From assembly GCA_035604955.1 (NCBI GenBank), contig DATNHM010000064.1, forward strand, positions 42,362-106,361: a DNA stretch of 64,000 nt. Reading direction: 5' to 3'. This DNA comes from Candidatus Limnocylindrales bacterium (GTDB lineage: Bacteria > Verrucomicrobiota > Verrucomicrobiia > Limisphaerales > UBA11358). The position numbers were made by a program, and so were the translations under genes. The notes below the pieces were generated by a model, which was given only the letters and a program-made list of their open reading frames with translations, was not told the origin of the DNA and ran no database searches. Positions 5,800 through 46,009 of this stretch are shown one piece after another. The first letter of the stretch is position 1. Each line of letters begins with the position of its first letter.

Positions 5800-5988
5800 C
5801 CGCCCTCACCCCGGCCCTCTCCCCGGGGGAGAGGGTGCGCCTCGGCGCGTCGCTGGACCTTTTCAGCGATCTTCGTCGCCGGCTCCGATTCTGTGTCATT
5901 GGCCGTGAGACGCACGAAAATCCGGCATCGCTCAAACGCGGCGAACGATTCTCCCTCTCCCGGGGGGAGAGGGCCGGGGTGAGGGCGG
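5800..5988. mobile_element. MITE-like element with about 35-bp terminal inverted repeats
   Basis: 5800..5835 ccgccctcaccccggccctctccccgggggagaggg is the reverse complement of 5954..5988. Each arm holds an internal CCCTCTCCCC/GGGGAGAGGG palindrome; the spacer is 118 bp. Confidence 0.5.
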
Positions 5989-13720: not shown

Positions 13721-15271
13721 ATGAAGTTGAAGCGCCCACAGTTGGTCCCCAACAGCTCCGTGGCCCGAATGCTCCAAACGGCCGATCAAGCCTGGGAACG
13801 CCGCGATTTCCAGCAATGCTTTGAGCAGATGGAACGCGCCAGTCGTTTGGACCCGGCCAATGCCAGGATACTGCTGATCCTGGGCCAGCGATACGGATTG
13901 CGTTACGATTATGCCGCCGCCGAACGCTGCTTTGACAAGGCTCTGCGCGTGGCCATACGGAAGACCGACGCGCTGGCGGCTGCGTGCCGGCTGTGCGCAA
14001 ATTTTGTCAACCCCAAACTGCCCGAACGGTATTTTCAAAAGGCCCTGGAACAAAACAATGCGACGCCGGAAACCTTCGCCACAGTGGCGGAGTTCTACGA
14101 AGGCGTGCGGCGCGTTGAAGAGGCATCCAAATTGTTGGACCGGGCGTTGCAGTTGGATGCCAACTGTGCTTTGGCCCGCCTGACCCGCGCGCGGCTGAAC
14201 CGCAACGCAGGACATCTGGAGGAAGCCGAACAGATTTTGCGCCCCATTCTGGCCACCGCGGAGCCGCAGGTCCGGATCCGGGGGTATTATGAGCTGGGCG
14301 CCATTCTGGATCGGCAAGGGCGCTACGACGAGGCGATGGCGGCGTTTTTGGAAGCCAAGGCGATTTTGCTGGCGAAGAACCAACCGTTGCTCGACCAGGC
14401 GCGCACGCATCGCCTCCTCATGAAGACGTTGTGGGCCGACTATACGGCCGAAGCCATGCAACGCTGGTTTGATCTGGGCCCGGAACTCCAACCGCTCCGG
14501 CGCCTGGCGTTCCTGGGCGGCCATCCGCGTTCGGGAACCACTTTGTTGGAACAAGTGCTGGATTCGCACCCGGACGTTGTTTCAGCCGAAGAAACGCACG
14601 TTTTTGTGGACGATGTATACATGCCGCTTCGATCCAGGCTGCCGGGAAGCCCGCCGATGTTTGCCATTCTGGAAGCCGCACAGACGGATGCCTTGCAACA
14701 GTGCCGCGCCGGATATTTCCACTCCATGGAACTGTGCTTGAGCCAACCGATTGGCGACCGGCTGCTGGTTGACAAGAATCCTCCCATAACCCTTTACCTG
14801 CCGGCCCTGATCCGGGCATTTCCCGAAATCAAAATTTTGTTTGCCTTGCGGGATCCGCGGGACGTGGTGCTGAGTTGTTTCATGCAATCCTATCTGCCGG
14901 TGACGCTTCCGACCGTATCCTATCTGAGCCTCGAAGAGACGACTGAAGGTTACACGTACTTGTGCGAGGAATGGGGGCTTTTTTCGTCCATGATGAAAAA
15001 CGCCTGGCTGAAAGTGCGCTATGAAGACATGGTGGCGGATTTGGAAACAGTGTCCCGGCGCGTATTGGATTTTCTGGGAGTGTCCTGGGACCCGTCGGTA
15101 CTGCGTTTTGATGAACATGCCCGGGGCAAAACAGTGCGCACTCCGACCTATGCCGACGTGACCCAGCCGGTCTATAGACGCGCCCAGGGCCGCTGGCGGA
15201 ATTATCAGAAATATCTCGAACCGTGTTTGCCCAAACTGGAGCCTTTTGTAAAGGCATTGGGATATGAATGA
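13721..15271 (+). CDS. TPR-repeat sulfotransferase, paralog 1
   Basis: The start at 13721 (MKLKRPQL) aligns with the other paralogs. N-terminal TPR half; C-terminal half has the PAPS 5'-PSB motif GGHPRSGTTLLEQVLDSHPD and the 3'-PB motif LRDPRDVVLSCF. Confidence 0.85.
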   Translation: MKLKRPQLVPNSSVARMLQTADQAWERRDFQQCFEQMERASRLDPANARILLILGQRYGLRYDYAAAERCFDKALRVAIRKTDALAAACRLCANFVNPKLPERYFQKALEQNNATPETFATVAEFYEGVRRVEEASKLLDRALQLDANCALARLTRARLNRNAGHLEEAEQILRPILATAEPQVRIRGYYELGAILDRQGRYDEAMAAFLEAKAILLAKNQPLLDQARTHRLLMKTLWADYTAEAMQRWFDLGPELQPLRRLAFLGGHPRSGTTLLEQVLDSHPDVVSAEETHVFVDDVYMPLRSRLPGSPPMFAILEAAQTDALQQCRAGYFHSMELCLSQPIGDRLLVDKNPPITLYLPALIRAFPEIKILFALRDPRDVVLSCFMQSYLPVTLPTVSYLSLEETTEGYTYLCEEWGLFSSMMKNAWLKVRYEDMVADLETVSRRVLDFLGVSWDPSVLRFDEHARGKTVRTPTYADVTQPVYRRAQGRWRNYQKYLEPCLPKLEPFVKALGYE

Positions 15272-15280
15272 TCAAATTGG

Positions 15281-15455
15281 CCGAGGGACGAGAGTCGAGC
15301 GTCGAGAGCAGAAGCAGATACGATATGCGATCGGGGATTTACGAGCTTATTAACGGTGGGGCGAGCGTCCTCGCAAGCCGCAACACCTTTTGCCAAAGCC
15401 GGCTCGTCAGTAGCCTCGCCCCACCACAAATCGAATATCGTAAATCGAAAATGAC
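15281..15455. repeat. composite repeat: (GTCGAGR) array, heptamer hairpin with a REP-B palindrome nested in its loop
   Basis: ccgagggacgagagtcgagcgtcgagag; atacgatatgcgatcggggatttacgag; GGTGGGGCGAGCGTCCTCGCAAGCCG...CGGCTCGTCAGTAGCCTCGCCCCACC (15355..15425); aaatcgaatatcgtaaatcgaaaatgac. Confidence 0.75.
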
Positions 15456-15458
15456 AGC

Positions 15459-17003
15459 ATGAAACGAACGCAACTGGTTTCCCAGGGCTCGATCGCCCGT
15501 ATGCTGCAAGCCGCCAATGACGCGATACAGCGGCGAAACTTTCGGGAAGCGGCTGAAATCCTGGAACGCGCCAGCCGCCTGGACCCCGGCAATCCCGGCA
15601 TCCTCATGCAGTCAGGGAGCGCATGCGGAAGACACTATGACTACGCGGCTGCCGAACGCTGTTTTGAAAAGGCCGTTCGCCTCGCTTCCCGGAAGGCGGA
15701 AGCGCTCGCGGCGGCAGGCCAGCTTTGCAGTGATTTCGCCAATTATGAGATGGCCGAACACTACCTGCGGCGTGCCGTGGAGCAAAACGGCGCCACGCCG
15801 GAAATGAAGGTCAGGCTGGCGGAAGTCTATGAACGGTTGCGACGCCTGCCGGAGGCTGCCGCCCTGGTGGAACGGGTTTTGCAACGGGACAATACGTTTG
15901 GGCCGGCCCTGTTTTTGCAGGCCAAATTGGACCGCCAGGCCAACCGTTTGGAGCAGGCAGAAAGCCGGCTCCGCGAGTTGGCGGCCAAATCCGAACCGTC
16001 TCTCTGCGTGCGCAGTTGGTATGAACTGGGCGGAGTGTTGGACAAGCAGAAACGTTACGACGAAGCCATGTCGGCATTCCTGGTGGCCAAGTCGCTGTTG
16101 CGTCCCCAGTCCGCCGGCCCCATCGCGCAACTGCAAACGGTTCGTGGACGTCTTAAAACGATGCAAGCCGCCCTTTCCGCCGAACTGTTCCAGCGCTGGT
16201 TTGATGGCGGCCAGGCATTGGCGCCGATTCGCCGGCTGGCCTTGCTGGGCGGCCATCCCCGCTCCGGCACGACGCTGCTGGAAAAAGTGGTGGATTCGCA
16301 CCCGGACATCATCTCTGCCGAAGAAACACCCATTTTTCACGATGAGGCCTGCTCCCCCCTCACGCAAGGCATGATGGAAAATGCCTCCACGCTGTCCGTG
16401 GCCGAGTCGGCCACCGCCGACACCTTGCGCCAGTCGCGAGAACGCTATTTCGAGACCATGGGAATGTTTCTGGGCCAGCCGATTGGCAATCGGCTGTTGC
16501 TGGACAAGAACCCGTCGCTCACGTTCATGATTCCCATCCTGGTCCGTGTCTTCCCGGAAATCAAATTTCTCATCGCCTTGCGCGACCCGCGCGACGTGGT
16601 TCTAAGTTGTTTTATGCTGCCCCTGGTGCCGCTCAACCAGACCGCGGCCGCTTATTTAAGTCTGGAAAGCACCGTCGAGGAATACACCGCCTTGATGGGT
16701 GTTTGGCGGACCGTGGCGCCGCTAATGAAAAATGCCTGGCTCGAAGTGCGCTACGAGGACATGGTTAACGATTTGGAATCCGTGGCGCGACGGGCTCTCG
16801 ATTTCCTCGGAGTTTCCTGGGACCCTGCCGTATTGAAATTTGACGAACACGCCCGACAAACTGTTGTCCGTTCGCCGACCTACGCGGACGTAACCAGGCC
16901 GGTTTTTAAAACGGCCATCGCCCGCTGGCGGAATTATCGGAAATATCTGGAGCCGCACCTGCCCAGGCTCGAGCCGTTCGTCAAGGCCTTTGGGTACGAA
17001 TAA
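15459..17003 (+). CDS. TPR-repeat sulfotransferase, paralog 2
   Basis: 514 aa; GGHPRSGTTLLEKVVDSHPD and LRDPRDVVLSCF motifs; collinear with paralogs 1, 3 and 4. Confidence 0.85.
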   Translation: MKRTQLVSQGSIARMLQAANDAIQRRNFREAAEILERASRLDPGNPGILMQSGSACGRHYDYAAAERCFEKAVRLASRKAEALAAAGQLCSDFANYEMAEHYLRRAVEQNGATPEMKVRLAEVYERLRRLPEAAALVERVLQRDNTFGPALFLQAKLDRQANRLEQAESRLRELAAKSEPSLCVRSWYELGGVLDKQKRYDEAMSAFLVAKSLLRPQSAGPIAQLQTVRGRLKTMQAALSAELFQRWFDGGQALAPIRRLALLGGHPRSGTTLLEKVVDSHPDIISAEETPIFHDEACSPLTQGMMENASTLSVAESATADTLRQSRERYFETMGMFLGQPIGNRLLLDKNPSLTFMIPILVRVFPEIKFLIALRDPRDVVLSCFMLPLVPLNQTAAAYLSLESTVEEYTALMGVWRTVAPLMKNAWLEVRYEDMVNDLESVARRALDFLGVSWDPAVLKFDEHARQTVVRSPTYADVTRPVFKTAIARWRNYRKYLEPHLPRLEPFVKAFGYE

Positions 17004-17054
17004 TTTTTAACCGCAAAGAACGCATAGAACACAAAGCACTTCACCACCTCTTTT

Positions 17055-17465
17055 ATGAAAGACATGACATCGTTGAGCGACCAAATCCGGCAGACGGCGT
17101 ATGACATTCATGTTTACCATGGGCACGGTCATTTGGAGAAAGTGTATAAAAATGCGCTGGCGCATAGGCTACGGAAGGCCGGCTTGGACGTAAAGCAGCA
17201 GCATCCGCTCAAAGTGTTTGACGAGGATGGAACGCTGATTGGTGACTATCTGGCGGACCTGCTGGTGGAAGGAAAATTGATTATTGAATTGAAGACCGCC
17301 AAGGCGTTGGCTGCCGAACATGAAGCGCAAATCCTCGGCTACTTGAAATCGGCGCGCTTGGAGCACGGTTTGCTGATCAATTTCGGTTCTTACAAGTTTG
17401 AAATCCGCAAGTTCGCCTGGAATGAGAATCAATCGCGAAGAACGCAGAGAATCCCCGACTTTTAA
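17055..17465 (+). CDS. GxxExxY protein (PD-(D/E)XK-like family, often found with IVS-type cassettes)
   Basis: GHLEKVY fits GxxExxY; DLLVEGKLIIELK is a nuclease-like core. The gene is bounded by TTAACCGCAAAGARCGCA inverted repeats (17007..17037 / 17465..17497). Confidence 0.8.
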   Translation: MKDMTSLSDQIRQTAYDIHVYHGHGHLEKVYKNALAHRLRKAGLDVKQQHPLKVFDEDGTLIGDYLADLLVEGKLIIELKTAKALAAEHEAQILGYLKSARLEHGLLINFGSYKFEIRKFAWNENQSRRTQRIPDF

Positions 17466-17528
17466 TTCTCTGCGTTCTTTGCGCTCTTTGCGGTTAAATG
17501 AAGGGAAGCAATCGAGAATGATGAACGC

Positions 17529-19073
17529 ATGAAACGGCCACAATTAATCGCTCCCGGCTCGCTCAACCGGATGCTGCAAGAGGCAAACGAAGCCTGGGGA
17601 CGCTGTGACTACCAGCAAAGTTTTGAGTTGCTGGAACGCGCCAGTCGTTTGGATCCGGCCAATACCCGGATCCTGATGCAGTTGGGCCAGTCTTACGGGC
17701 GGCGTTACGATTATGCCGCGGCCGAGCGCTGTTTTGACAAAGCGGTGCGCGTGGCGACAAGAAAAGCCGAGGCACTGGCCGCCGCGGGCCAATTATGCGC
17801 CGATTTTCCCAGCCATCATCTGGCGGAACGATACTATCGGCAGGCGTTAACGCAGAAAGACGTGCCGCCGGAAACGTTCGTCCGATTGGCCGAACTCTGC
17901 GAACGTCTGCGCCGCACCGAAGAAGCCGCCGGGCTGGTGGAGCGGGCATTGGATTTGGACGCCAACTGCGCCTTGGCCCTCCTGACCCAGGCCAGGTTAA
18001 GTCGTCAGGCCGGAAATTTGGAGGAAGCAGAAAAGATTCTTCGCCCGGTCCTGGGATCAGCGCAGCGCGAGATGCGCGTACGTGGTTACTACGAACTGGG
18101 CGCGGTTCTGGACCGCCAGAGGCGCTACGATGAAGCCATGACAGCATTGCTCGAAGCCAAAAAACCGCTGGCCCCCGATGCACCGCCACTTCTGGCAGAG
18201 ATGAAGGTCGTCCGGGCACATGTGCGCCAGATGCTGGACACCCTCTCTGCCGATACAATGCGGCGTTGGTCCGAACGTGACACCGTTCTTGAGCCGCCAC
18301 TCCGGCTCTCCTTATTGTGCGGCCATCCCCGTGCCGGCACAACCTTGCTCGAACAAGTGCTCGACTCGCATCCTGACATCGTCTCAGCGGAAGAAACCGA
18401 GATTTTTCAGGTTGACGCCTATCGTCTGCTGGGACGTAATCTGCCTCCGGATGCGCCCATGCTGACCCTTCTGGATGGCGCACAGGCCGGGACTTTACAG
18501 CAGGCGCGGAAATGCTATTTAACCACAATGTCATCGCTGCTCGGCCAGCCGGTCGGCGCCCGCCTGTTGATTGACAAAAATCCCTCCTACAATGTCCTGA
18601 TTCCGGCGTTTGTTCGCATCTTTCCCGAAACCAGGTTCCTGGTCGCCTTGCGCGATCCCCGGGATATCTGCCTGAGCTGTTTTATGCAGGCGTACGTGCC
18701 ATTGACCAGGGCCAGCGCTCCCTGCATCACCCTGGAGAACACGGTGGAACTCTACCTCTGGCTGATGGGCACATGGCAGACGCTGAAGCCGCTGCTAAAA
18801 AATCCCTGGCTCGAAGTGCGCTATGAAGACATGGTGGAAAATCTGGAACTGTCCGCGCGCAAAACTTTGGATTTCCTCGGCGTCGCCTGGAACCCGGAGG
18901 TGCTAAAGTTTCACGCACATGCCCGGCAGAAAATGGTGCGCACACCCACTTACGCTGACGTGACCCAGCCGGTGTATAAACGCGCCGTCGGCCGCTGGCG
19001 GAATTATCAGAAATATTTCGAGCCGCATCTGGAAAAGCTCGAACCACTCGTGAAGGCGTTTGGGTATGAATAG
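17529..19073 (+). CDS. TPR-repeat sulfotransferase, paralog 3
   Basis: 514 aa; CGHPRAGTTLLEQVLDSHPD and LRDPRDICLSCF motifs. Confidence 0.85.
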   Translation: MKRPQLIAPGSLNRMLQEANEAWGRCDYQQSFELLERASRLDPANTRILMQLGQSYGRRYDYAAAERCFDKAVRVATRKAEALAAAGQLCADFPSHHLAERYYRQALTQKDVPPETFVRLAELCERLRRTEEAAGLVERALDLDANCALALLTQARLSRQAGNLEEAEKILRPVLGSAQREMRVRGYYELGAVLDRQRRYDEAMTALLEAKKPLAPDAPPLLAEMKVVRAHVRQMLDTLSADTMRRWSERDTVLEPPLRLSLLCGHPRAGTTLLEQVLDSHPDIVSAEETEIFQVDAYRLLGRNLPPDAPMLTLLDGAQAGTLQQARKCYLTTMSSLLGQPVGARLLIDKNPSYNVLIPAFVRIFPETRFLVALRDPRDICLSCFMQAYVPLTRASAPCITLENTVELYLWLMGTWQTLKPLLKNPWLEVRYEDMVENLELSARKTLDFLGVAWNPEVLKFHAHARQKMVRTPTYADVTQPVYKRAVGRWRNYQKYFEPHLEKLEPLVKAFGYE

Positions 19074-19074
19074 G

Positions 19075-19187
19075 TAGGGCGGGCAATCCCTTGCACGCCG
19101 GTTGTGGTTGGATGATGGCGGCGCGCACGGAGTGACGCGCCCTACCGGGTTTACGGATCACGGCACGCGCGGAGCGGAGCGCCCTAC
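19075..19187. repeat. cluster of GTAGGGCG-headed REP-like palindromes
   Basis: gtagggcgggcaatcccttgcacgcc; ...gcgcacggagtgacgcgccctac; ...gcgcggagcggagcgccctac. Confidence 0.65.
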
Positions 19188-19214
19188 CGACAAATCGCGC
19201 GCCTGACTCCGAAT

Positions 19215-19889
19215 TCACGCCAGCCTGCGGCGGAACAACATGAGCGCCGCCAAACCCAAACCGCCCAAAGCCAGCGTAGTTGGCTCAGGAATTGAAAAGA
19301 ATGCGAATGGTTGCATAGTGGTCATAAAACCGGGAGGCTGAATTCCCGTGGCAAGCTCTGGTATTGTAAATGGAGCCGATTGCCCCCTCCACATCCCGGC
19401 ACCCTCGGACGCCGCATAGCTCGATCCATTGTAGGCCTCCACTATGAACGTGATCGGGCCTGACGTATAACTTGGAATTTCTACAGCGCCTCCAAAGAAA
19501 TATCCTGGAGCGATTCCCGACGAATACACGCTGCCCGCGCTGGGCAGCGGACCGTCAACCGTGCTGCTGAAGAAGCCGAATGGAACCGGGTACCCACCGA
19601 AGCCTGCGGTACTTGCACCGGAATTGGCTTGCGTAAGCAATGTATAGGAAAAGCCATTCAGTGAATACAGAAGGTCGGCGGTGAATTCGGAACCGACGCC
19701 AAAACCAGCTACAGTAGTCGTCCCACCATTTACCGCTTGTCCCGATGACCCGAACGTGACCGGGGCATAGAAGCGCTCAGCGCCGCTGGCGTAATTTTGG
19801 AAATAAATAGACCCTCCGGCATTCGATGTCGCCACCATGGCCAACAGGCCTGCCAATCCAAGTATTGATGCCAAGATTGCTCTTTTCAT
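19215..19889 (-). CDS. PEP-CTERM sorting-domain secreted protein (Gly/Tyr/Ser-rich), paralog of 24367..25038
   Basis: Signal peptide MKRAILASILGLAGLLAMVATSNA; C-terminus IPEPTTLALGGLGLAALMLFRRRLA. Shares YFQNY, FIVEAYNGS and WRGQSAPF with 24367..25038. Confidence 0.8.
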   Translation of the reverse strand: MKRAILASILGLAGLLAMVATSNAGGSIYFQNYASGAERFYAPVTFGSSGQAVNGGTTTVAGFGVGSEFTADLLYSLNGFSYTLLTQANSGASTAGFGGYPVPFGFFSSTVDGPLPSAGSVYSSGIAPGYFFGGAVEIPSYTSGPITFIVEAYNGSSYAASEGAGMWRGQSAPFTIPELATGIQPPGFMTTMQPFAFFSIPEPTTLALGGLGLAALMLFRRRLA

Positions 19890-20129
19890 ATTGATCCCCT
19901 TCCGTTTTGGTTGATTGGCGATGGGTAAAGACGGATCTTTTCTGAACACAATCATCCTATCTCATTTACTGTGATAATTCAATCACAAACCATAATTTAT
20001 CGAAAAGGCATGGAGGACTGGGCCGGCCGTCGTACCTGCCAGACGGACTTTGTAACCCGATACTCCGCCTGTGTTCGGCGTCAGTGTTGAAAGCACGGAA
20101 AATTGGAGCGCATCCTGACACCGTTCTGG

Positions 20130-20257
20130 GTAGGGACGGCGCGTTGCGCCGTCCGCGCCGCGTCCAGCGGCGCGAGGTCGTGGAAACCCTGGATTCCCAA
20201 GTATTCCTTTCCGCCCGCTACTTCGCGGGCGGGGCCGCCGCAGCGCAGCGGCCCTAC
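20130..20257. repeat. GTAGGG...CCCTAC bounded multi-hairpin REP-like element
   Basis: gtagggacggcgcgttgcgccgtcc ... ggggccgccgcagcgcagcggccctac. Confidence 0.65.
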
Positions 20258-20286
20258 CGGCTAAGGACAGTGTCAAGATGCACGCG

Positions 20287-20372
20287 AAAATTGCGATATG
20301 CGATTTACCATTTACGAAGCTTGTTTGATAATGAGGGCGCGCGTAAATCGCAGATCGTAAATCGAAAATAAC
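20287..20372. repeat. heptamer hairpin module (TTTACGA)n / (TCGTAAA)n abutting a start codon
   Basis: aaaattgcgatatgcgatttaccatttacgaag ... cgtaaatcgcagatcgtaaatcgaaaataac, then caac-ATG (20376). Confidence 0.7.
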
Positions 20373-20375
20373 AAC

Positions 20376-21920
20376 ATGAATCAACCGCAACAGGTTGCTC
20401 AAGGTGCCGTGGCCAGAATGGTCCAAATGGCGGACGCAGCCTGGGAACAGCGCCATTTCCAGCCATGTTTTGAGTTGATGGAGCAGGCCAGCCGTTTGGA
20501 CCCGGCCAATTTTGGGATCCTGCTAAACCTGGGCCAGCGTTATGGGTTGCGCTATGACTACGCCGCGGCTGAACGCTGCTTTGAACAAGCCGTGCGCGTG
20601 GCCAAAGATAAGACCCACGTGCTGACCGCAGCGGGCGAGTTGTCCGACTTTTTCGCCAACCCCAAACTGCCTGAGCAGTATTTTAAAAAGGCCATGGAGC
20701 AACAAGACGCGCCGGCCGGAACTTTCGCCAAAGCGGCGGAATTCTACGAACGTCTGCGGCGGATGGAAGAGGCCTCCACGTCGTTGGACCGCGCATTGCA
20801 ATTGGACCCCAAGTGCGGCCTGGCCTGGCTGGCTCGCGCCCGGCTGCTTCGCCACGCGGGAAACCTGGAGGAAGCCGAAATGGTCCTTCGTCCCATTCTA
20901 ACCACCGCGGAGCGGGAAGTGCGGATTCGCGGCTACTATGAACTGGGCGCCATTCTGGATCGGCAAGGACGTTACGATGAGGCCATGGCGGCCTTTCTGG
21001 AGGCCAAGAAGATATTGCTGGAGAATGCCCGGCCCATGATTGCCAATTTGCTGGCGGGCCGCGCCGTCATCAGACCACGGCGAGCCGACATCAAGGCCGA
21101 GGCCATGCAGGGCTGGTTTGACGCCAGAGCCGAACTCCAGCCATTCCACCGGTTGGCCCTTCTCGCGGGCCATGCGCGCTCGGGGACAACGCTGCTCGAA
21201 CAAGTCCTGGATTCGCACCCGGACATCATCTCAGCGGAGGAAACAGAGATTTTTATGGATGACGCGTTCCTGCCTCTCCGGGCCGGTCTTCCGCCAAATA
21301 TCACCATGTTCGGCGTTCTGAAACTGGCGCAGACCTCCGCCTTGAGACAATCCCGCGAACGCTATTTCCGCACGATGGAGCTGCACTTGAACCAACCCAT
21401 CGGCAACAGGCTGCTGCTTGACAAGAATCCCACGGTCACCTATCGCGTTGCGGCTTTTGCCCGGATTTTCCCGGAAGCAAAGATTCTACTCATGTTGCGG
21501 GATCCGCGGGACGTGGTGATGAGTTGCTTCATGCAACCCTACCTGCACATTGAGGTAACCGGCCTGTCTTATCTCACCCTCGATCTTACCGTTGACGATT
21601 ACACCTTCGTGATGGAGGCGTGGAAAGCCCACGGCCCTTTACTCAAAAACCCGTGCCTGGAAGTGCGCTACGAAGACACCGTGGCCGATTTGGAATCAGT
21701 CTCCCGGCGCGTGCTGGACTTTCTGGGCGTGTCCTGGGACGCCTCGGTGCTGAAATTTGACGAGCACGCGCGAACCAGGAAGGTGAAGTCGCCCACCTAC
21801 GCCGATGTGACCCAGCCGGTCTATAAGCGCGCCCAGGGCCGCTGGCGGAATTATGAGAAATATCTGAAGCCGTATCTGCCCAAATTGGAGCCGTTCGTGA
21901 AGGCGTTTGGGTATCAATAG
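20376..21920 (+). CDS. TPR-repeat sulfotransferase, paralog 4
   Basis: 514 aa; AGHARSGTTLLEQVLDSHPD (P to A in the PSB loop) and LRDPRDVVMSCF. Confidence 0.85.
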   Translation: MNQPQQVAQGAVARMVQMADAAWEQRHFQPCFELMEQASRLDPANFGILLNLGQRYGLRYDYAAAERCFEQAVRVAKDKTHVLTAAGELSDFFANPKLPEQYFKKAMEQQDAPAGTFAKAAEFYERLRRMEEASTSLDRALQLDPKCGLAWLARARLLRHAGNLEEAEMVLRPILTTAEREVRIRGYYELGAILDRQGRYDEAMAAFLEAKKILLENARPMIANLLAGRAVIRPRRADIKAEAMQGWFDARAELQPFHRLALLAGHARSGTTLLEQVLDSHPDIISAEETEIFMDDAFLPLRAGLPPNITMFGVLKLAQTSALRQSRERYFRTMELHLNQPIGNRLLLDKNPTVTYRVAAFARIFPEAKILLMLRDPRDVVMSCFMQPYLHIEVTGLSYLTLDLTVDDYTFVMEAWKAHGPLLKNPCLEVRYEDTVADLESVSRRVLDFLGVSWDASVLKFDEHARTRKVKSPTYADVTQPVYKRAQGRWRNYEKYLKPYLPKLEPFVKAFGYQ

Positions 21921-22030
21921 TTGGTTGAATGTTGAGGGTTGAGAGTTGAGGGTGACGGCTCGTCAGTAGCCTCGCCCCACCAATGGCCACAGCAGCATCA
22001 TTCCGGTGTGGCGAGCGTACTCGCGAGCCG
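21921..22030. repeat. (TTGAGGG/TTGAGAG) array plus a tail-to-tail REP-B pair
   Basis: ttggttgaatgttgagggttgagagttgagggtgacgg; CGGCTCGTCAGTAGCCTCGCCCCACC (21957..21982) ... GTGTGGCGAGCGTACTCGCGAGCCG (22007..22030). Confidence 0.7.
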
Positions 22031-22078
22031 CATCTGCACCGGCTGGAACCATTTGTGAAGGCGTTTGGATACGGGTAA
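22027..22078 (+). pseudogene. orphan 3'-end fragment of a fifth TPR-sulfotransferase paralog
   Basis: gagccgcatctgcaccggctggaaccatttgtgaaggcgtttggatacgggtaa reads EPHLHRLEPFVKAFGYG*. This matches the last ~16 codons of paralogs 1-4 (..LEPFVKAFGYE*). Confidence 0.6.
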
Positions 22079-22082
22079 GGCA

Positions 22083-22195
22083 GTCGAGGGTCGAGGGACG
22101 AGAGTCAGAGAATTTACGATATACGATTGACGATTTACGACACCTTTCGACCAAATGGCACCGCGCGTAAATCGTATATCGTCAATCGCAAATAG
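22083..22195. repeat. (GTCGAGG) array plus heptamer hairpin module, left flank of the HigBA-like cassette
   Basis: gtcgagggtcgagggacgagagtcagag; aatttacgatatacgattgacgatttacga - 25 nt - cgtaaatcgtatatcgtcaatcgcaaatag. Confidence 0.75.
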
Positions 22196-22779: not shown

Positions 22780-22913
22780 TGCCCGTCTCCGTCTTGAAAA
22801 AGACGACCTTGAGCGGGCGTTCAGCCTTCATCGGTAAAACACTGTATCAGAATTGATACATGTGTCAACCGGGAAGATATTCCGGAGGAAATGAGGTCAC
22901 GAGGTTCTGACGG

Positions 22914-22999
22914 GATTTACGATATACGATATACGATTTATGAGGCCCTTTCGATAAGGTAACGCAGCGCGTAAATCGTATATCGTCAATCGAAAATGA
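22914..22999. repeat. heptamer hairpin module, right flank of the HigBA-like cassette
   Basis: gatttacgatatacgatatacgatttatga - 26 nt - cgtaaatcgtatatcgtcaatcgaaaatga; a near-copy of 22111..22195. Confidence 0.75.
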
Positions 23000-23141
23000 T
23001 GGGACTCCTGGCGTCGTCCCCCACTATTTGGCAGTAGGCGCCGAGGTAACGAGGCGAGGACTCCTCACGTCGTCCCCTACTATCTTCAGTAGGCGCCGAG
23101 GTCACGAGGCCCTGGACTCCTTACGTCGTCCCCTACTTTCT

Positions 23142-24074
23142 TTACCGGGTTTTCCGCGAACTGCGGAACGGCAACTTTCGGTCGCCGGCCTCAGGCTGAC
23201 GTTGCCGCTGGTATAACTTCCAAAACTTCGGCCAGAAATCCTCCTGCCACGGATGCAACGTGGGATAGCCGGGAACAATGGCGCCACCATAGGGCCAATC
23301 AGTAGGAGCCGAGGTCACAAGGCTGGACTCCCCACGTCGTCCCCTACCATCTTCCGTAGGAGCCGAGGTCACGAGGCTGGACTCCTTACGTCGTCCCCTA
23401 CCATCTTCTGTAGGAGCCGAGGTCACGAGGCTGGACTCCCCACGTCGTCCCCTGCCATCTTCCGTAGGAGCCGAGGTCACGAGGCTGGACTCCTTACGTC
23501 GTCCCCTACTATCCCCTGCGGCGATCAATCCAGCCCGAACGGGATTGGCCAGGATGTAAAAACAGATCCTCGCAAAGGCATCGTGCTTCCTTTCCTCATC
23601 ACTCAAGACGTGGTCGTGCGCCTGCGGCTGAAATTTGTGCGGCGCCAAGCGCGGTTCCAGGTGCGTCCGTAAAAATGACATGGCGTTTCGCTGGTCCGTG
23701 TCGCACCGCAGTCCCAGCCACAGCAGATGAATGTGGTCGGGCATCAGACAGTAAGCCGGGCACAGCAACCCTTCCCGCGCGGCGGCGTGGAGCAACAGCT
23801 CACGGAATCCGCAGTGAAAGGCGGCATTCAACCAGCCGGTGGCCCGGTCAAATACCGTCAGGGTCCAGTGAACCGCGGCGTCGCCCCGATAAAATTCCGG
23901 GTCCAGGCGGGGAAGATGACCCGGATGTTTAGTAGGGGACGACGTAAGGAGTCCAGGCCTTGACGTGTCCAGTCTCTCCTCACGCCTCGTTACCTCGGCG
24001 CCTACTGGCCGCGGGGTACCAGTAGGGGACGACGTGAGGAGTCCGGGTCTGGGGATTTCCTGGTCCTCATTCAC
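23142..24074 (-). CDS. REP-associated tyrosine transposase (IS200/IS605-type Y1 HUH, RAYT-like), with REP-derived N-terminus and internal REP tract
   Basis: HUH motif in YCLMPDHIHLLW and catalytic-Tyr motif FYILANPVRAGL. About 48 N-terminal aa and 72 internal aa (4 x GRGRRKESSLVTSAPTED) are translations of REP-A; true start uncertain. Confidence 0.7.
   Translation of the reverse strand: MNEDQEIPRPGLLTSSPTGTPRPVGAEVTRREERLDTSRPGLLTSSPTKHPGHLPRLDPEFYRGDAAVHWTLTVFDRATGWLNAAFHCGFRELLLHAAAREGLLCPAYCLMPDHIHLLWLGLRCDTDQRNAMSFLRTHLEPRLAPHKFQPQAHDHVLSDEERKHDAFARICFYILANPVRAGLIAAGDSRGRRKESSLVTSAPTEDGRGRRGESSLVTSAPTEDGRGRRKESSLVTSAPTEDGRGRRGESSLVTSAPTDWPYGGAIVPGYPTLHPWQEDFWPKFWKLYQRQRQPEAGDRKLPFRSSRKTR
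23302..23509. repeat. four tandem REP-A units, 54-bp period, in frame within the RAYT CDS
   Basis: GTAGGAGCCGAGGTCACRAGGCTGGACTCCYYACGTCGTCCCCTRC + 8-bp linker; unit starts at 23302, 23356, 23410, 23464. Confidence 0.9.
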
Positions 24075-24300
24075 GAGGCCGATATAGCAGAGACTCGTTA
24101 CCTCGTCTCCTACTATTTTCAGTGGGAGCCGAGGTGACGAGGCTGGGACTCCTCACGTCGTCCCCTACTATTTTGGGAGGCAGTAGGCGCCGAGGTAACG
24201 AGACGGGGCAAGGGACTCCTTACGTCGTCCCCTACTATTTTCGGTAGGAGCCGAGGTAACGAGGCTCGGACTCCTTACGTCGTCCCCTACTGAGATAACG

Positions 24301-25722: not shown

Positions 25723-25820
25723 ATTCTGTTTCTGTTTTAGTTTTACCGTGTGTGTCACCAATATCTCAGAATGCAAGGGGGGTGTCAACGATTTTTTGAG
25801 ATTTTTTGAACGATTTTGAG

Positions 25821-26207
25821 GGTGACGGGTGACGGGTGACGTGTGACTAGAACTGATTGGCTATCAACGACTTGTGCTATAATCGTCTCACGCGTCAGAG
25901 GTCACATGTCACCGGGGAAAAGAGGAAAAAGCGCTTTGTAACCAGTTTGTAACCAGTTTTAAAGGAGTTGAGGGTTGAGAGTTGAGGGTTGAGAGAAAGG
26001 GAAAAAGTCCAGGAATGTCGCTAATGTGCGCTAATTATTAAGATTAATACAGGGTCATTGCCGCCAAAAGGCGCCCGTCTGCGTCAGCTCCCGTCTTCAC
26101 TGCGTTACGCCGCGGCGAGTCGAGGCGGCAAGGAGGGCGGTAGTCAGCAGTCAGTGGTCAGTAGTTGGTAGTCAGTAGTCAGTAGTTTTTAGCGGTTACC
26201 CGTCACA
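25821..26207. repeat. intergenic field of concatenated short-period arrays
   Basis: (GTGACGG)x3.5 25821..25847; tttgtaaccag x2; (TTGAGGG/TTGAGAG)x4 25967..25995; ctaat/attaag tract; (CAGYAGT)x6-TTTTT-agcggttacccgtcac 26140..26207. Confidence 0.85.
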
Positions 26208-26318
26208 TTTCAAAGGCGGAAGCGGAGGGCTGAATTGAACCATTTTTAACGCGAAGACGCCAGGACGCAACGAGGTGAAGGAATGCGGGGAAGATGAGAA
26301 TCGGCAGTATCCTGATTT

Positions 26319-26363
26319 GTAGGCGACGAGGTAACGAGTCGCACTCCTTACGTCGTGCCCTAC
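26319..26363. repeat. solitary REP-A copy
   Basis: gtaggcgacgaggtaacgagtcgcactccttacgtcgtgccctac. Confidence 0.75.
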
Positions 26364-26428
26364 CTTCAAATCAGGACATTACCTTAGATTCGCTTGACGG
26401 GCCGTATTCGTCGTGGTGTATTAATGTT

Positions 26429-27774: not shown

Positions 27775-28101
27775 TCAAGCTGCCAAACCAAGCATACGGG
27801 CGCAAACGGTTTCAATCGCCACAAAGTTCTCTTTCGGAAAAGCGGCAATACGCCGAATGATTTTTGCGTTGTCCACCCCGGCGATGCCCAGCACATTCAC
27901 CACCGATTCCTGTTTGAGCCACGCGGGCTTGGGAAAGTGAACTTCACATTCCCCGCCACGAATCTCCGTGGTCATGGGAACCACGACGGACATGGCGCGT
28001 TCGGCATCGGGGCGGCGCACGGAAACAACCACACACGGTCTGATTTTGGCGGCCATACCCAAATCCACGATCACGACGTCGCCGCGATCAAATTTGGTCA
28101 T
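27775..28101 (-). CDS. mazF: PemK/MazF-family toxin
   Basis: MTKFDRGDVVIVDLG...IRPCVVVS...VVPMTTE is typical of MazF/PemK; 14-nt overlap with the upstream antitoxin. Confidence 0.75.
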   Translation of the reverse strand: MTKFDRGDVVIVDLGMAAKIRPCVVVSVRRPDAERAMSVVVPMTTEIRGGECEVHFPKPAWLKQESVVNVLGIAGVDNAKIIRRIAAFPKENFVAIETVCARMLGLAA

Positions 28102-28303
28102 AATCAATTTCGGGCGCGGGTCCGAGTTTGTTCCACGTATCGGCCACAATAGCTTCCCAGGCACGCGCCGGAGTTTTCACCCTGGGCGCGGGCATGACCC
28201 ACCAGCCGCCCTTTTGGGCGGTGACCAGGTATTGCTGTCCTTTCCGGGTACCGCGTATGGAAACCCGGCCCTTGTCGTCGGCTTTGACCAGCGTGGTTTG
28301 CAT
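28088..28303 (-). CDS. mazE: AbrB/MazE-type antitoxin
   Basis: MQTTLVKADDKGRVSIRGTRKGQQYLVTAQKGGWWVMP SpoVT/AbrB-like N-terminus; the ATG at 28303 lies inside ORF 28088..28489. Confidence 0.65.
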   Translation of the reverse strand: MQTTLVKADDKGRVSIRGTRKGQQYLVTAQKGGWWVMPAPRVKTPARAWEAIVADTWNKLGPAPEIDYDQI

Positions 28304-28406
28304 GTGGGAAAGTTCCCACGGCGCAGGGTGGGTGTCAAGCCAGAGAGCGGCGGGCCCCGTAAAAGGCGGGCGCCTCACGCGGTGGGCCCCGTAAATGGAC
28401 TGGTTT

Positions 28407-28534
28407 GGTGGGGCGAGGCTACTGACGAGCCGGGGTGAAGGGGAAAATCGGTTCAACAAAACGGCTCGCGAGGACGCTCGCCCCACCAAACCAAATCATC
28501 TCAACCGACGGCTCGCGAGGACGCTCGCCCCACC
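28407..28534. repeat. REP-B palindrome plus an extra half copy
   Basis: GGTGGGGCGAGGCTACTGACGAGCCG (28407..28432) ... CGGCTCGCGAGGACGCTCGCCCCACC (28462..28487) and again at 28509..28534. Confidence 0.8.
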
Positions 28535-28536
28535 CG

Positions 28537-29838
28537 TCAGCCATTACTCGCCTGCACCAAAATTTTAAGGGAATCCGAAGTTGGTTTGGCGGCCAAAGCC
28601 ACGGCTTCCGCGGTTTGTTCCAACGGAAAGCGATGCGTGATCAACCGGCGCACGTCGAGCCGGCGGGAAAAGACCAGACGCGCGACTTCGGACTGCAAAG
28701 TGAAATCCGACGAGTAGCTGCCGATGAGGTCTTTCTCGTCCAGACAAATTGACGCGAGGTCAATTGGGGAGATTGGGGATGGGAGTTGGGAGTTGGGAGG
28801 AATGGCCACCTCACCCGCATCAAATAATGTTTTCCCTTTAACCCTCACCCGACCTTTGGCCACCCTCTCCCGCTCCCGCGAGCGAGGGGTCTGGCTTTCT
28901 CCCCTGCCATCTGCCATCTGCCATCTGCCATCTGCTCTTTTGGTGTGAGCGAAAAGGAGGACCTGGCCGCCGCCGCGGACGAGGGCCAACGCCTGATGCA
29001 CGGCGGCATCGGAGGAAACGGCGATGATGGCGGCGTCCAAATTGGGAATTGTAGGAGACGAGGTGACGAGCCTCTTATTCATCCCAGGTTTTGGATTTCG
29101 GACTTCGAGTTTTTCAGTTAGAGCCTCGTCACCTCGGCTCCTACTGACATTAATCGTCCAGCGGGCGCCGAATTTTTTGGCGAGTTTCAACCTGGATTCG
29201 AGCAAATCGGTGGCGAGGACGCGCGCGCCGGCGAGTTGCAGCAAGCGCGTGAACATCAGGCCAATCGGCCCCTGCCCCGCCACCAACACAACGTCGCCGC
29301 GCAACAGGTTCAATCGCCGGACGGCCTTGAGCACGGTGTTGACGGGCTCCAACATCGCGCCTTCTTCAAAAGAGTTTTTCGCCGGGATTTTCACGACGCC
29401 GGGCAGGACGAAGGGCATGACGCAGACGTATTCGGCGTAGCCGCCGCCCGCCGGTTCGAAACCGGCGGTGATGCCGGTGCGTTTGTAGGTTTCGCATTGG
29501 GCAAAGGCGTGGTGCCGGCAATAATGGCAATCCAGGCAGGGCACGTGATGGTGGAGGGCGACGCGGTCGCCGACTTTGAGTGACGAGTGACGGGTGACGA
29601 GTGACGGGTTTCCGGCGCCGATCTGGACGATGGTGCCGGCGGTTTCGTGGCCGAAGATGCGCGGGGGCGGGACGGTGCCGTGCTGGATTTTTTTGATGTC
29701 GGTGGGGCAGACGCCGCAGACGGCGACCTTGACGAGCAGTTCATTCGGGCCGAGGCGCGGGACGGGGACGGTTTCGAGGCGCAGGTCGTTGACGCCGCGA
29801 TAAACGACGGCGCGCATGGTTTTGGGAATGGCGAACAC
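28537..29838 (-). CDS. zinc-dependent medium-chain alcohol/threonine dehydrogenase family protein carrying three in-frame repeat insertions
   Basis: GVCPTD, GHE, structural-Zn cluster CLDCHYCRHHAFAQC, Rossmann VAGQGPIG. It has extra segments relative to typical MDR dehydrogenases, encoded by repeats at 29578..29608, 29051..29144 and 28763..28935. Start at 29838 or 29817. Confidence 0.8.
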   Translation of the reverse strand: MFAIPKTMRAVVYRGVNDLRLETVPVPRLGPNELLVKVAVCGVCPTDIKKIQHGTVPPPRIFGHETAGTIVQIGAGNPSLVTRHSSLKVGDRVALHHHVPCLDCHYCRHHAFAQCETYKRTGITAGFEPAGGGYAEYVCVMPFVLPGVVKIPAKNSFEEGAMLEPVNTVLKAVRRLNLLRGDVVLVAGQGPIGLMFTRLLQLAGARVLATDLLESRLKLAKKFGARWTINVSRSRGDEALTEKLEVRNPKPGMNKRLVTSSPTIPNLDAAIIAVSSDAAVHQALALVRGGGQVLLFAHTKRADGRWQMADGRGESQTPRSRERERVAKGRVRVKGKTLFDAGEVAIPPNSQLPSPISPIDLASICLDEKDLIGSYSSDFTLQSEVARLVFSRRLDVRRLITHRFPLEQTAEAVALAAKPTSDSLKILVQASNG

Positions 29839-29850
29839 GGGGGAGTTTTA

Positions 29851-30104
29851 ACCGCGGATGACGCGGATGACACGGATTTTTTTGACGGAAAGACGACTAA
29901 CCGCAAAGAGGCAAAGACGCAGAGAACACTGGAAGATCAGGATTAAGAGTAAGATTAAGATTAAGATTTTTGGCGGAACCGTGAAAGACACGAAATTTTA
30001 GACACGGATTACACGGATAAACACGGATTTTTTGAAGGAGTCAGCAGTCAATAGTCAGTGGTCAGCAGCTTTTTACGCGTCACCTGTCACACGCCACATG
30101 TCAC
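29851..30104. repeat. field of six different short-period arrays, most ending in a T-run
   Basis: (CGGATGA) 29851..29883; (GCAAAGA/CGCAGAG) 29899..29934; (GATTAAG) 29938..29971; (ACACGGAT) 29985..30034; (GTCAGYA) 30040..30075; (CGYCACN) 30076..30104. Confidence 0.85.
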
Positions 30105-31922
30105 TCATTGGGGTGGCGGGGCCAAAAAGGTGTGGAGGCCGATCGGGAATTGGGGAGATTCCAACCAGTCGGCCAGAAGATTTAACTCGATACCGGTGAA
30201 ACCGATGGTGGATTTGCGGGTGAAGGACAGTTGATTGGGGCCGGTTTGGGTAATGACGGTGAGACTGGCGCCGAGCCTGGGAGCAATGTCTTTAAGCCAG
30301 AGCGTCGCCGGAGCACTGAATGGCAACTGGTCCTTATTGCAAACAAGGCGGGCAAACTGGCCCATGTAAAGCCATTGTTCGGTTCGCGGGCCGGTGATTT
30401 CCCAATCGTAATAGACCGCATTGGTCCGGTTCAAGACGGCTTGCAGCGATTGAAGCGACAGTGGCAGGGCAGGTGGTATTGGTTGGAACGCGCCGCCAAA
30501 AATGAAGCTCTGGCGGTTGATGTTCGTATAAAGCACGAATGGGTACATATATGGGACGCCCTTCCACTCCAAGCCGTTGAAGGCGGCAGATTTTTCGAAC
30601 TTTGAAAGACCGTTTGTCGGAAACCAGCGGTATTGCTTTCGCAAGACCAAATCGGTCAGCCTGGAAACCGTGTTGCTGGCTTCCGGGAGCGGCGTCGCGA
30701 AATAGCTGAGCATATTAAGCCCCGGCATCGCCCAAAAACAGATCTGATCCGGCGGCGGGCCGATTTGGAGATTAGTCCAGAATGGCGATGAGGCCAGCCA
30801 GGGCTGGAATCCCCGAATGGCAGTGAAACCGGACAGATGTTCATCAATCAGATTGGTGGGGATGTTCCACGGTTTCAGTTCGAGCGCCAGCGGCTCCGGA
30901 AAATCGACCGTGCCGTTCAACAAGACGTTGGTGACGTCACCGGTCGCGGACAGATGAAGGCGGTTGAGAGTGAAAATGTCTTTCGAACCCACCTCACCCC
31001 GGCCACTGGATTTGTTCTCATCCCCACCACCCTCAACCGCCCTGTGGGCACCTTCTCCCGCTCCCGCGAGCGAAGGAACTTCCCCCGCTGTACGGGCGGA
31101 GAGGGAGAAGACAGCGGCGAGTCGCGCCGGGTCGAGGTCGGCTTCGAGCCAGTCTCCCGGGTTCCGTACGTTCCAGGGCGGCAGGGCACGGTGCGTTCGG
31201 AGCCGCAGTTCGGCAATCAAACCATTGAAGTCTTCAGCCGCCCCCACGATGGTCCACGCGCCAATACGGGTCAGCTCAATGACGTTGGGGGAATGATGCT
31301 TTTTGAGCGACCAGCCGTATGAACCCTGAGGTGCCGGGACAGGCTGGAGGCTGGTCAATGATTCCAGGACCGCGGCGAGATTGGTCTGCCACAAGGCGGC
31401 GCGCTGGTCGTCCAGCCGGATGGCCAAGGCAAGCTCAGCCGGTTGATTGGCTACCTGACGAATTTCCAGATACGACTCACCGGCGACCAGATCGTCCAGC
31501 AACGGCCGCAAAAGAGCGGCGGCATTGGTGTCAAGGTTGCGATGCAGCAAAGGCCAGGGGGCGAGGGAAAGTTTGTCCAGGGTTTGTTGTTCGAGCCGCC
31601 GGCTTTCGGGCAGGTTCCAAATCGTCAGCAAAGAAGCCGCATTGGTCCCGCCGGAGAGCTGTTTCATTCCCGACCAGTGAACGCGGGCAACAATCGGCAT
31701 GGAAGCCGTCGGCGGCGTCTGGCCCGGAGGCGTGTTTTCGGCGGACTGGGCTGGCCGGGCGCCGGCCAGCAACATAACGGCGGCAAACAGGATGAATAGG
31801 TTTCCATTTTGCCCGGAAAATCGTTTGCCGTATAACGATTTTGCCGGATGCAAAAAGGCAACGCGTGGCATGTTCATTATCCGCTGTTTTATGCCAAAAC
31901 CAGGGGCCATCGGCAATTTCAA
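30105..31922 (-). CDS. hypothetical secreted protein (no recognised domain), contains one in-frame ~105-bp repeat element
   Basis: 605-aa ORF with a hydrophobic N-terminal segment LFILFAAVMLLAGARPAQS; start ambiguous among M1/M16/M18. Confidence 0.55.
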   Translation of the reverse strand: MKLPMAPGFGIKQRIMNMPRVAFLHPAKSLYGKRFSGQNGNLFILFAAVMLLAGARPAQSAENTPPGQTPPTASMPIVARVHWSGMKQLSGGTNAASLLTIWNLPESRRLEQQTLDKLSLAPWPLLHRNLDTNAAALLRPLLDDLVAGESYLEIRQVANQPAELALAIRLDDQRAALWQTNLAAVLESLTSLQPVPAPQGSYGWSLKKHHSPNVIELTRIGAWTIVGAAEDFNGLIAELRLRTHRALPPWNVRNPGDWLEADLDPARLAAVFSLSARTAGEVPSLAGAGEGAHRAVEGGGDENKSSGRGEVGSKDIFTLNRLHLSATGDVTNVLLNGTVDFPEPLALELKPWNIPTNLIDEHLSGFTAIRGFQPWLASSPFWTNLQIGPPPDQICFWAMPGLNMLSYFATPLPEASNTVSRLTDLVLRKQYRWFPTNGLSKFEKSAAFNGLEWKGVPYMYPFVLYTNINRQSFIFGGAFQPIPPALPLSLQSLQAVLNRTNAVYYDWEITGPRTEQWLYMGQFARLVCNKDQLPFSAPATLWLKDIAPRLGASLTVITQTGPNQLSFTRKSTIGFTGIELNLLADWLESPQFPIGLHTFLAPPPQ

Positions 31923-31933
31923 TTACGGTCGGC

Positions 31934-31993
31934 GGTCAGCAGTCAGTAGTCAGTAGTTTTTACCCGTCCCTTGTCACTCGTCACTCGTCACGC
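31934..31993. repeat. composite module (CAGYAGT)n-TTTTTA-(CCGTCAC-like)n
   Basis: ggtcagcagtcagtagtcagtagtttttacccgtcccttgtcactcgtcactcgtcacgc; same architecture as 30040..30104 and 26140..26207. Confidence 0.85.
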
Positions 31994-33240: not shown

Positions 33241-33258
33241 TTCGCCCATGCCCCCCCC

Positions 33259-33368
33259 CGGCTCGTCAGTAGCCTCGCCCCACCGCCTAGCGGGATGTGA
33301 CGAGTGACGAGTGACGAGTGACATGAAAAGCGCGGACCGTTGACTGCTGACTACTGACTTTTGACTGC
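33259..33368. repeat. REP-B half copy, (GTGACGA)x4 array and (TGACTRC)x4 array
   Basis: cggctcgtcagtagcctcgccccacc 33259..33284; gtgacgagtgacgagtgacgagtgac 33297..33323; ttgactgctgactactgacttttgactgc 33340..33368. Confidence 0.8.
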
Positions 33369-46008: not shown

Positions 46009-46009
46009 G

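Follow-up and report, generated by a model that had tools for sequence, protein, structure and literature searches.

The window analysed here, a stretch of 64,000 nucleotides of verrucomicrobial DNA (assembly GCA_035604955.1, contig DATNHM010000064.1, positions 42,362 to 106,361), carries on its minus strand the genes for a Zn-dependent alcohol/L-iditol dehydrogenase (ADH) and for a conserved hypothetical protein of Verrucomicrobiae (gene 2). Both genes contain a copy of the same element of about 100 bp, copy A in the ADH and copy B in gene 2. This element is a compound, non-autonomous DNA repeat made of units of a G/C-rich intrastrand triplex motif (TM, also published as TMECO or PIT). We consider it probable, at roughly 0.7, that TM units, heptanucleotide arrays and GTAG-type repetitive extragenic palindromic (REP) units occupy a few permissive sites in conserved verrucomicrobial proteins, as frame-tolerant repeats that spread by recombination and slippage.

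Metagenomes 3300010379 (JGI; contig of 58.7 kb) and 3300000567 both have a contig that encodes the identical ADH protein. Its nearest relatives are proteins annotated as belonging to Verrucomicrobiae metagenome-assembled genomes (MAGs). Both the ADH and gene 2 are conserved and syntenic in related MAGs.

One element in two genes and two frames

The first-pass annotation had described copies A and B as homologous, equally oriented and placed in unrelated genes, with their cores one nucleotide out of register, and all of this is borne out. MAFFT column identity is 77% over 131 nt, and the best-matching stretch of about 48 nt reaches roughly 87%. The 21-mer core CTCTCCCGCTCCCGCGAGCGA has just two sites in the window at up to three mismatches, one in each copy, with none expected from 100 dinucleotide-preserving shuffles. 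In both copies the G-rich strand, called the TM strand below, is the minus strand and the coding strand of the host gene. Copy A spans 28806-28905 as described; copy B starts at 30989, not 30988, and continues as a compound structure to about 31109.

In the ADH the core is read as CGC TCG CGG GAG CGG GAG AGG (RSRERER), and in gene 2 as TCG CTC GCG GGA GCG GGA GAA (SLAGAGE), one nucleotide off. The shift concerns the inner part only, a refinement of the earlier description, because the two genes share the frame of the common distal block CCACCTCACC (GGT GAG GTG, GEV). The end of this block lies 59 nt from the core in copy A and 64 nt in copy B. It is this difference of 5 nt between outer block and core, separating copy A (subfamily I) from copy B (subfamily II), that accounts for the two frames in the window. 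The insert peptides include the segments HTKRADGRWQMADGRGESQTPR and SLAGAGEGAHR.

Near-identical relatives of copy A (89-98%) are found in the ADH orthologues at loci L052 and L004, in the gene 2 orthologue at L003, and in orthologues of the pseudouridine synthase RluA at L037 and L067. At L003 a subfamily-I element stands at the site of copy B, in the other frame. Descent of copy B from this L003 element by frameshift (-8/+5 nt) was considered and rejected, since copy B belongs, at full length, to a separate co-varying subfamily and has a full-length near-twin at L054.

A family of nested triplex motif units

A TM unit has the layout CCCTCGCCC-loop-GGGAGAGGG-linker-GGGTGAGGG, that is, a pyrimidine block S1 (CCYTCGCYC), a complementary purine block S2 (GGGAGARGG) and a G-rich mirror block S3 (GGRTGAGGG). 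In the inner unit of copies A and B, the linker between S2 and S3 is itself a mini-hairpin (GGCC-GAA-GGCC), and an outer TM unit flanks or encloses it. Elsewhere, for example in the genomes of L020, L022 and L099, the outer hairpin carries the inner unit in its loop.

For a census of the family, the 20-mer GGGAGCGGGAGARGGTGSCC was scanned against 185,579 species genomes, which gave 100 loci. About 72 of the copies, in about 60 MAGs, are true family members, nearly all from Verrucomicrobiae ("subdivision 3"), so that the two copies of the window are far from the only ones. Their G+C content is 67%. Subfamily I has the form CCCTCGC…GAGAGGGTGGCC…GGCCGGGTGAGGG, and subfamily II the form CCTTCGC…GAGAAGGTGSCC…GGSCGGATGAGGG. 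All three blocks were found in copies A and B and in the 72 family members. A hairpin-only TM finder, applied to 1.04 Mb of the fetched loci, showed that S3 depends on S2, and also revealed a third, rarer variant.

Of the 1008 pair cells of the 72-sequence alignment, 99.0% are paired in the two-hairpin structure, compared to about 50% when the partners are slid. Two pairs co-vary. In hairpin 1, ten pairs are 99% conserved in the 72 copies, with C-G to U-A covariation; pair 7-28 has C-G 42 times and U-A 27 times. In the mini-hairpin of copy A, pair 37-54 (alignment A4) is GC in 53 copies, CG in 12 and GU in seven. The third strand follows the duplex. Nine triad columns were tested, and at the variable position 69 of the 72 copies show triads allowed in class II triplexes (C-G*G in 42, T-A*A in 22, T-A*T in five; three others). 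S3 changes together with the duplex, precisely in the manner demanded by class II triads.

The canonical form of the motif lies in the window at 5.8-6.0 kb, where two TM units form an intergenic inverted pair. The first-pass annotation had linked copies A and B to this non-coding locus (5800..5988) and had called it MITE-like, for miniature inverted-repeat transposable element; the kinship with this non-coding inverted repeat stands, and the MITE label is imprecise. Both canonical units, at 5802-5835 and 5953-5986, have the short loops of 1-6 nt of the ITxF definition. Copies A and B fall outside this definition, with a first loop of 4 nt past an extended stem and a mini-hairpin of 11-12 nt as linker between S2 and S3. 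A 45-nt query from the right arm (5948-5992) matches 4517 of 5426 complete Escherichia coli genomes, at 90-97% over 38 nt, in unannotated places. The E. coli counterpart of this 38-nt stretch is an intergenic repeat with about six copies per genome, present in 83% of the complete genomes, a conservation that crosses phyla.

Could the element be a classical non-autonomous transposon, a MITE or a REPIN, which is inserted by an IS- or RAYT-type transposase and whose out-of-frame copies are purged by selection? The dispersal of 89-98% identical copies over unrelated genes would fit, as would the long hairpin formed by the inverted pair at 5787-6001 (z = -6.9). Furthermore, GTAG-type REPs coexist with the element in the window and in the ADH itself, and REPs are known from within genes of the verrucomicrobium Opitutus terrae (PMC3733652). 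However, the unit of roughly 100 bp has no terminal inverted repeats, its ends being GGGGAGARRGCC.. and ..GCGGGTGAGGTGG, and alignments of filled and unfilled sites reveal no target-site duplication. Next to hairpin 1 there is no GTAG/CGTC tetranucleotide, as the four 5' bases are variable and TGGCC follows the stem. The copies are lodged in other TM units and not at a target defined by its sequence, and in E. coli TM has no association with mobile elements (PMC4666352). A classical MITE was rejected, given the lack of terminal inverted repeats and target-site duplications. We regard an origin as MITE or REPIN as unlikely; spread driven by a transposase is possible.

An RNA-level role has less in its favor. 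The structure could be selected in the mRNA, where it might, for instance, stabilize the transcript, aid its processing or make translation pause from one folding unit to the next, and the insertions would then be functional and not merely tolerated. All 39 one-sided stem changes are G.U (G.T) pairs on the TM strand, which in the window is the mRNA sense for both copies, and Di Nocera et al. take G-T pairing as an argument for the transcription of REPs (PMC3733652). Yet a triplex or hairpin in single-stranded DNA predicts the same strand asymmetry, and eight of the 23 copies that span open reading frames (ORFs) are antisense to their host gene. Many orthologues also do without the element at the same site. 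The Rfam 15 scan of the window at gathering score gave no match to the element, its single match being a tRNA gene at 9330-9401, and the local matches at the E-value threshold were chance matches to microRNA models. Altogether, selection on the mRNA appears improbable.

Table 1. Coordinates of the host genes, element copies and associated repeats in the 64,000-nt window
Feature	Position	Strand	Description
Host gene 1, Zn-dependent alcohol/L-iditol dehydrogenase (ADH), 433 aa	28537..29838	-	ADH_N and ADH_zinc_N domains; three in-frame hot spots
Host gene 2, conserved hypothetical protein of Verrucomicrobiae, 605 aa	30105..31922	-	No Pfam family; one hypervariable in-frame site, which holds copy B
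Copy A, subfamily I, nested TM element in ADH	28806..28905	-	Read as GESQTPRSRERERVAKGRVRVKGKTLFDAGEV
Copy A, hairpin 1 (S1 and S2)	28863..28889	-	CCCCTCGCTCGC(GGGA)GCGGGAGAGGG; present in the minimum-free-energy fold
Copy A, mini-hairpin	28851..28861	-	GGCC-AAA-GGTC; takes the place of the short S2-S3 linker of the canonical TM
Copy A, third-strand block S3	28842..28850	-	GGGTGAGGG; its TGA shuts one reading frame
Heptanucleotide array, unit CCCAACT (gene strand)	28767..28800	-	Directly downstream of copy A in the gene; read as PPNSQLPSPISP
Heptanucleotide array, GCAGATG x4 (gene strand)	28904..28935	-	Directly upstream of copy A in the gene; read as ADGRWQMADGR
ADH hot spot 2, inverted pair of GTAG-type REP units	29051..29152	-	In frame, read as ..EALTEKLEVRNPKPGMNKRLVTSSPT..; related to the cluster at 22.9-24.3 kb
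ADH hot spot 1, heptanucleotide array, unit GTGACGR (+ strand)	29578..29609	-	Read as PSLVTRHSSL
Copy B, compound	30989..31109	-	Outer TM unit with a subfamily-II TM nested between its S2 and S3; read as FSLSARTAGEVPSLAGAGEGAHRAVEGGGDENKSSGRGEV
Copy B, parts of the outer unit	~31081-31109; 30989-30999	-	S1 and loop; S3-like block GGGTGAGGTGG
Copy B, hairpin 1	31052..31077	-	CCTTCGCTCGC(GGGA)GCGGGAGAAGG; T-A co-varying version of the copy A pair
Copy B, mini-hairpin and S3	31030..31049	-	GCCC-ACA-GGGC and GGTTGAGGG; T*A-T triad at the co-varying position
Canonical TM unit, left arm of the intergenic inverted pair	5802..5835	-	
Canonical TM unit, right arm	5953..5986	+	CCCTCTCCCGGGGGGAGAGGGCCGGGGTGAGGGC; matches TMECO type B in Table 1 of PMC4666352

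Frames, translation and hot spots in the host genes

A copy was counted as genic if the stop-free stretch around it was 900 nt or longer and extended 150 nt or more beyond it in both directions. Among the 47 copies with enough flank, 21 (45%) lie in such stretches, compared to 56% of random 90-nt segments of the same loci. According to Pfam, the hosts include PurL, DnaE, the RluA-type pseudouridine synthase, Eco57I-like and other DNA methylases, and the ADH, and the domain matches stretch across the insert. Further in-frame repeat-derived segments, besides TM, were seen in the genes for DnaE (L061:4988-7999 and L089:1658-4015), PurL (L007:4231-6909) and the Eco57I-like protein (L009:2-4129), for example PLTPTLSPGERENQ, SPSPSGRGIKG and GRAGLPPGQDAQQRVPT. 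For this reason, the colonization of ORFs by repeats looks genome-wide in this clade.

On the element strand, frame alpha reads PRPRERERVAEGRVRV and frame beta PSPAGAGEGGRRPDEG; the complementary strand reads PSPGLRPPSPAPAGEG. At least two frames of the element strand and one of the complementary strand are in use. In three genes the frame even differs among orthologues at the same site, namely in gene 2 (the window against L003), at the third ADH site (the window, L004 and L052 against L085) and in RluA (L067 against L050). In each of them, subfamily I stands in one frame and subfamily II in the other.

This variation bears on the idea that the insert is a protein-level module, a conserved functional peptide gained by two genes. 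The peptide QTPR(S/P)RERERVA(K/E)GRVRV.GKTLFDAGEV does recur in the ADH, in gene 2 and in RluA orthologues. But other hosts read the same DNA in three or more further frames or orientations, and orthologues read it in another frame at the same site, which contradicts such a module. Moreover, what is conserved is the nucleotide sequence, in keeping with base-pairing rules, and many orthologues manage without the peptide. A protein module is therefore very improbable.

It had also been proposed that the element is free of stop codons in at least two frames of its strand, as expected of a repeat that survives insertion into ORFs. This applies to copy B, with two of the three gene-strand frames open, and not to copy A, where only the frame in use is open. 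Across 73 copies, 3.64 of the six frames are open over 100 nt per copy, compared to 3.81 ± 0.11 in dinucleotide shuffles, and 4.9 compared to 5.48 ± 0.07 over the 47-nt core. In about 90% of the copies, one frame of the G-rich strand is shut by the conserved TGA of S3. Open frames are no commoner than composition predicts, their openness being due to the G+C content of the family, and the hypothesis of stop-codon depletion was thus refuted and dropped.

The ADH offers the closest view of the insertion sites. Its orthologues range from 363 to 458 aa, and in the alignment the length variation is confined to three sites, after the motifs IGAG, KFGAKWT and LLFAHTKR. Compared to the solved structure 1e3j in the Protein Data Bank, the ADH is longer by about 68 residues in the region from query position 239 to 358, and in the pairwise alignment the third site corresponds to a short connecting segment of this nearest solved homologue. 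The third site is filled by copy A, between two heptamer arrays. We surveyed 80 ADH orthologues on metagenome contigs by tblastn, with the sites set by the flanking conserved motifs in any frame and not by gene calls. The sites were in frame and stop-free in 68 of 68 cases for site 1, 61 of 61 for site 2 and 60 of 60 for site 3, a total of 189 of 189, although there were 14, 33 and 28 distinct lengths, respectively. The shortest version of site 3 has 39 nt (KRGAVTELDLASI).

Because all sites keep the frame despite so many lengths, the inserts are most likely translated. The ADH is about 80 aa longer than its solved homologues, which might suggest intervening sequences spliced from the RNA, pseudogenes or assembly artefacts, yet neither excision at the RNA level nor a pseudogene would impose such a frame constraint, the protein is identical in two independent metagenomes, the flanking domains are strongly conserved, and no intron or ribozyme family is matched, so that untranslated inserts have next to no probability.

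The fillings of the other sites are diverse. At hot spot 1, the peptide PSLVTRHSSL is kept in many ADH orthologues, and others have different heptamer-derived or "GGASVPASRSNS" repeat peptides. At hot spot 2, the orthologues have "..RLVTSSPT / SRLTSAAT" peptides or unrelated fillers. The hypervariable site of gene 2 is, in many orthologues, just a translated heptamer array (TLNFELSTLN).

Turnover of the sites and relation to known repeats

Element and host gene do not diverge in step. Between the window and L052 the element is 98% identical, and the coding flanks are 89% and 77% identical. Between L052 and L004, on the other hand, the element is 89% identical, with flanks at 98.5% and 95%. The divergence of the element is thus incongruent with that of its host gene. 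At the third ADH site, comparison of L105 with the window yields neither a clean empty site nor a footprint, but a mosaic of heptamers and a mini-hairpin; in L105 both flanking heptamer arrays are present without the element. The mismatch in divergence and the mosaics without target duplications fit gene conversion or template switching between dispersed copies, plus heptamer slippage, and they agree with the elevated rearrangement described for TM loci in E. coli (PMC4666352).

The ADH gene itself is mosaic in the comparison with L052 and L004. Positions 29040-29450 are 89-90% identical (74-76% at third codon positions), and positions 28537-28760, 3' of the TM insert, just 77% (about 50% at third positions). 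This pattern suggests a recombination junction at the insert.

According to the mechanism that we propose, structure-prone repeats would stall or derail replication or repair. Stalling could lead to slippage, as a source of the heptamer arrays, and to template switching or gene conversion among dispersed copies, so that the sites may be rewritten repeatedly. Within genes, the survivors would be the variants with a length that is a multiple of three and without stops in the host frame. Selection would keep only the reading frame open, and not the peptide, and this would be why the element stands in different frames, orientations and subfamilies, even at one orthologous site.

Several points weigh against frame-tolerant spread of this kind. 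The mechanism is one that we infer, with no donor-recipient pair, excision footprint or enzyme identified, and the case for translation is built on frame conservation, not on peptides. The survey of the best 80 tblastn loci may favor intact genes, and the census is a pattern-selected sample of MAG loci, not one complete genome. The covariation mostly rests on two subfamilies, which means few independent events. Folding of single copies as RNA, on either strand, is not significant (z = -1.4 and -1.1, within a range of -0.6 to -1.4). Triplexes of this motif were undetectable in vivo (PMC4666352). The AlphaFold2 model of the ADH, from a 30-sequence alignment, has a mean pLDDT of 45.5, too poor to place the inserts on the surface, and their placement was therefore taken from the alignment to 1e3j.

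A bolder version can be put forward only tentatively, and we consider it unlikely. TM repeats might be instability hot spots that rewrite surface loops of conserved or essential proteins (DnaE, PurL, RluA, ADH), with heptamer slippage correcting frames by ±1 and with the triplex selected in vivo. If true, the covariation of S1, S2 and S3 would be the first evolutionary evidence that an intrastrand triplex, beyond the hairpin, forms and matters in vivo, a point that biophysical studies were unable to demonstrate.

The surroundings of the two genes are rich in repeats. At 22870-24300 lies a dense cluster of at least 14 GTAG-type units (ACTCCTTACGTCGTCCCCTACT / GTAGGAGCCGAGGTCACGAGGCT), in both orientations and with a spacing of 54-56 nt, and further units are found at 13644 and 26315-26367. 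Period-7 arrays occur at 26 places in the window, mostly intergenic, for example at 22112-22193, 25819-25992, 31927-31991, 46009-46043 and 52680-52742. They are often paired, with two different arrays flanking TTTTT(A), as at 30039-30089 and 31927-31991. A dispersed repeat, GGTGGGGCGAGGCTACTGACGAGCCGG, and a variant of it occur at 28405-28534, 15399-15426, 21955-21983, 33256-33284 and 8005-8083; its copies are 100% complementary over distances of up to 13 kb, with an inverted pair just downstream of the ADH. A PemK-type toxin gene with a small upstream ORF (27775-28489) adjoins the ADH, and in related MAGs several toxin-antitoxin pairs (PemK, ParE, Gp49/HTH) are found at the syntenic position. 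Four tandem paralogues at 13700-22100, with start spacings of 1732, 2070 and 2847 nt and 60-77% identity, are annotated with TPR and sulfotransferase domains in an overlapping JGI locus.

These findings join two literatures, one on intrastrand triplex motifs as a cause of intergenic instability in E. coli, the other on in-frame "selfish" palindromic repeats. They indicate that such motifs are tolerated and translated, in several frames, in housekeeping enzymes of a large, uncultured group of Verrucomicrobiae from soil and peat. For annotators, they explain why proteins from these MAGs contain puzzling low-complexity stretches (…RERERVAEGRVRV…, …SLVTRHSS…) and why orthologues differ in length. 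The hundreds of independently filled sites are also a natural data set on the loops that tolerate insertions, and one in which covariation can test selection on the third strand.

Heptanucleotide tandem repeats are known from cyanobacteria as STRR. Other bacterial examples are the TAACTGA repeats of Beggiatoaceae (PMC4679880) and the G-rich heptamers of Xanthomonas and Nostoc (PMC4692102). The arrays described here resemble them in being abundant, mostly intergenic and built on many different units. They differ in that they flank TM and sit in frame, where they encode peptides with a period of seven amino acids (LVTRHSS, NSQLPTP, ADGRWQM). Our literature searches returned no description of heptamer arrays, or of the element, in Verrucomicrobia.

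A close relative in sequence is TMECO (Holder et al. 2015, NAR 43:10126, PMC4666352), which is reported to form a stable triplex in vitro, to be solely intergenic in E. coli K-12, to have loops of 1-6 nt and to mark hot spots of local rearrangement. The blocks CCCTC(G/T)CCC, GGGAGAGGG and GGGTGAGGG, with a G.A mismatch ("A mm" type), are identical to those in Table 1 of that study. Both systems also share inverted pairs and locally hypervariable DNA, and E. coli copies match the unit at 5953-5986 with 90-97% identity. In contrast to TMECO, the units here are nested, have the mini-hairpin of 11-12 nt as second loop, lie within ORFs in 45% of the sampled copies, and belong to the phylum Verrucomicrobiota.

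In behavior, the element resembles the Rickettsia palindromic elements (RPEs; Ogata et al. 2000, per PMC10969869). These are palindromes of about 100-150 bp, dispersed in frame in unrelated housekeeping genes and apparently compatible with their function, and each RPE is said to encode a conserved peptide (PMC10969869). Here, at least three frames or orientations are used, the frame varies among orthologues at one site, and the host is a verrucomicrobium; a relation in sequence is not to be expected. The GTAG/CGTC REPs (Di Nocera et al. 2013, PMC3733652) are small palindromes within genes, many of which serve replication and repair. Intragenic GTAG copies are most numerous in O. terrae, and the genes that harbor such REPs include those for DnaE and pseudouridine synthases. 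The element shares with them its intragenic position, the DnaE and pseudouridine synthase hosts and the G-T pairs in the stems, but has no GTAG/CGTC tag and has a third-strand block and nesting instead. The GTAG-type pair at 29051-29152 does belong among the GTAG REPs. With REPIN/RAYT systems (PMC3116915, PMC3337134) the element has in common inverted short palindromes that form a long hairpin, as at 5787-6001, and differs by the missing GTAG head.

In-frame palindromic repeats were thus already known from the RPEs of Rickettsia and the REPs of Opitutus, as were TM motifs. What is new here is that TM units are nested and, in all likelihood, translated in conserved genes, in several frames even at orthologous sites, that they are associated with heptamer arrays, and that their three blocks show a three-way covariation.

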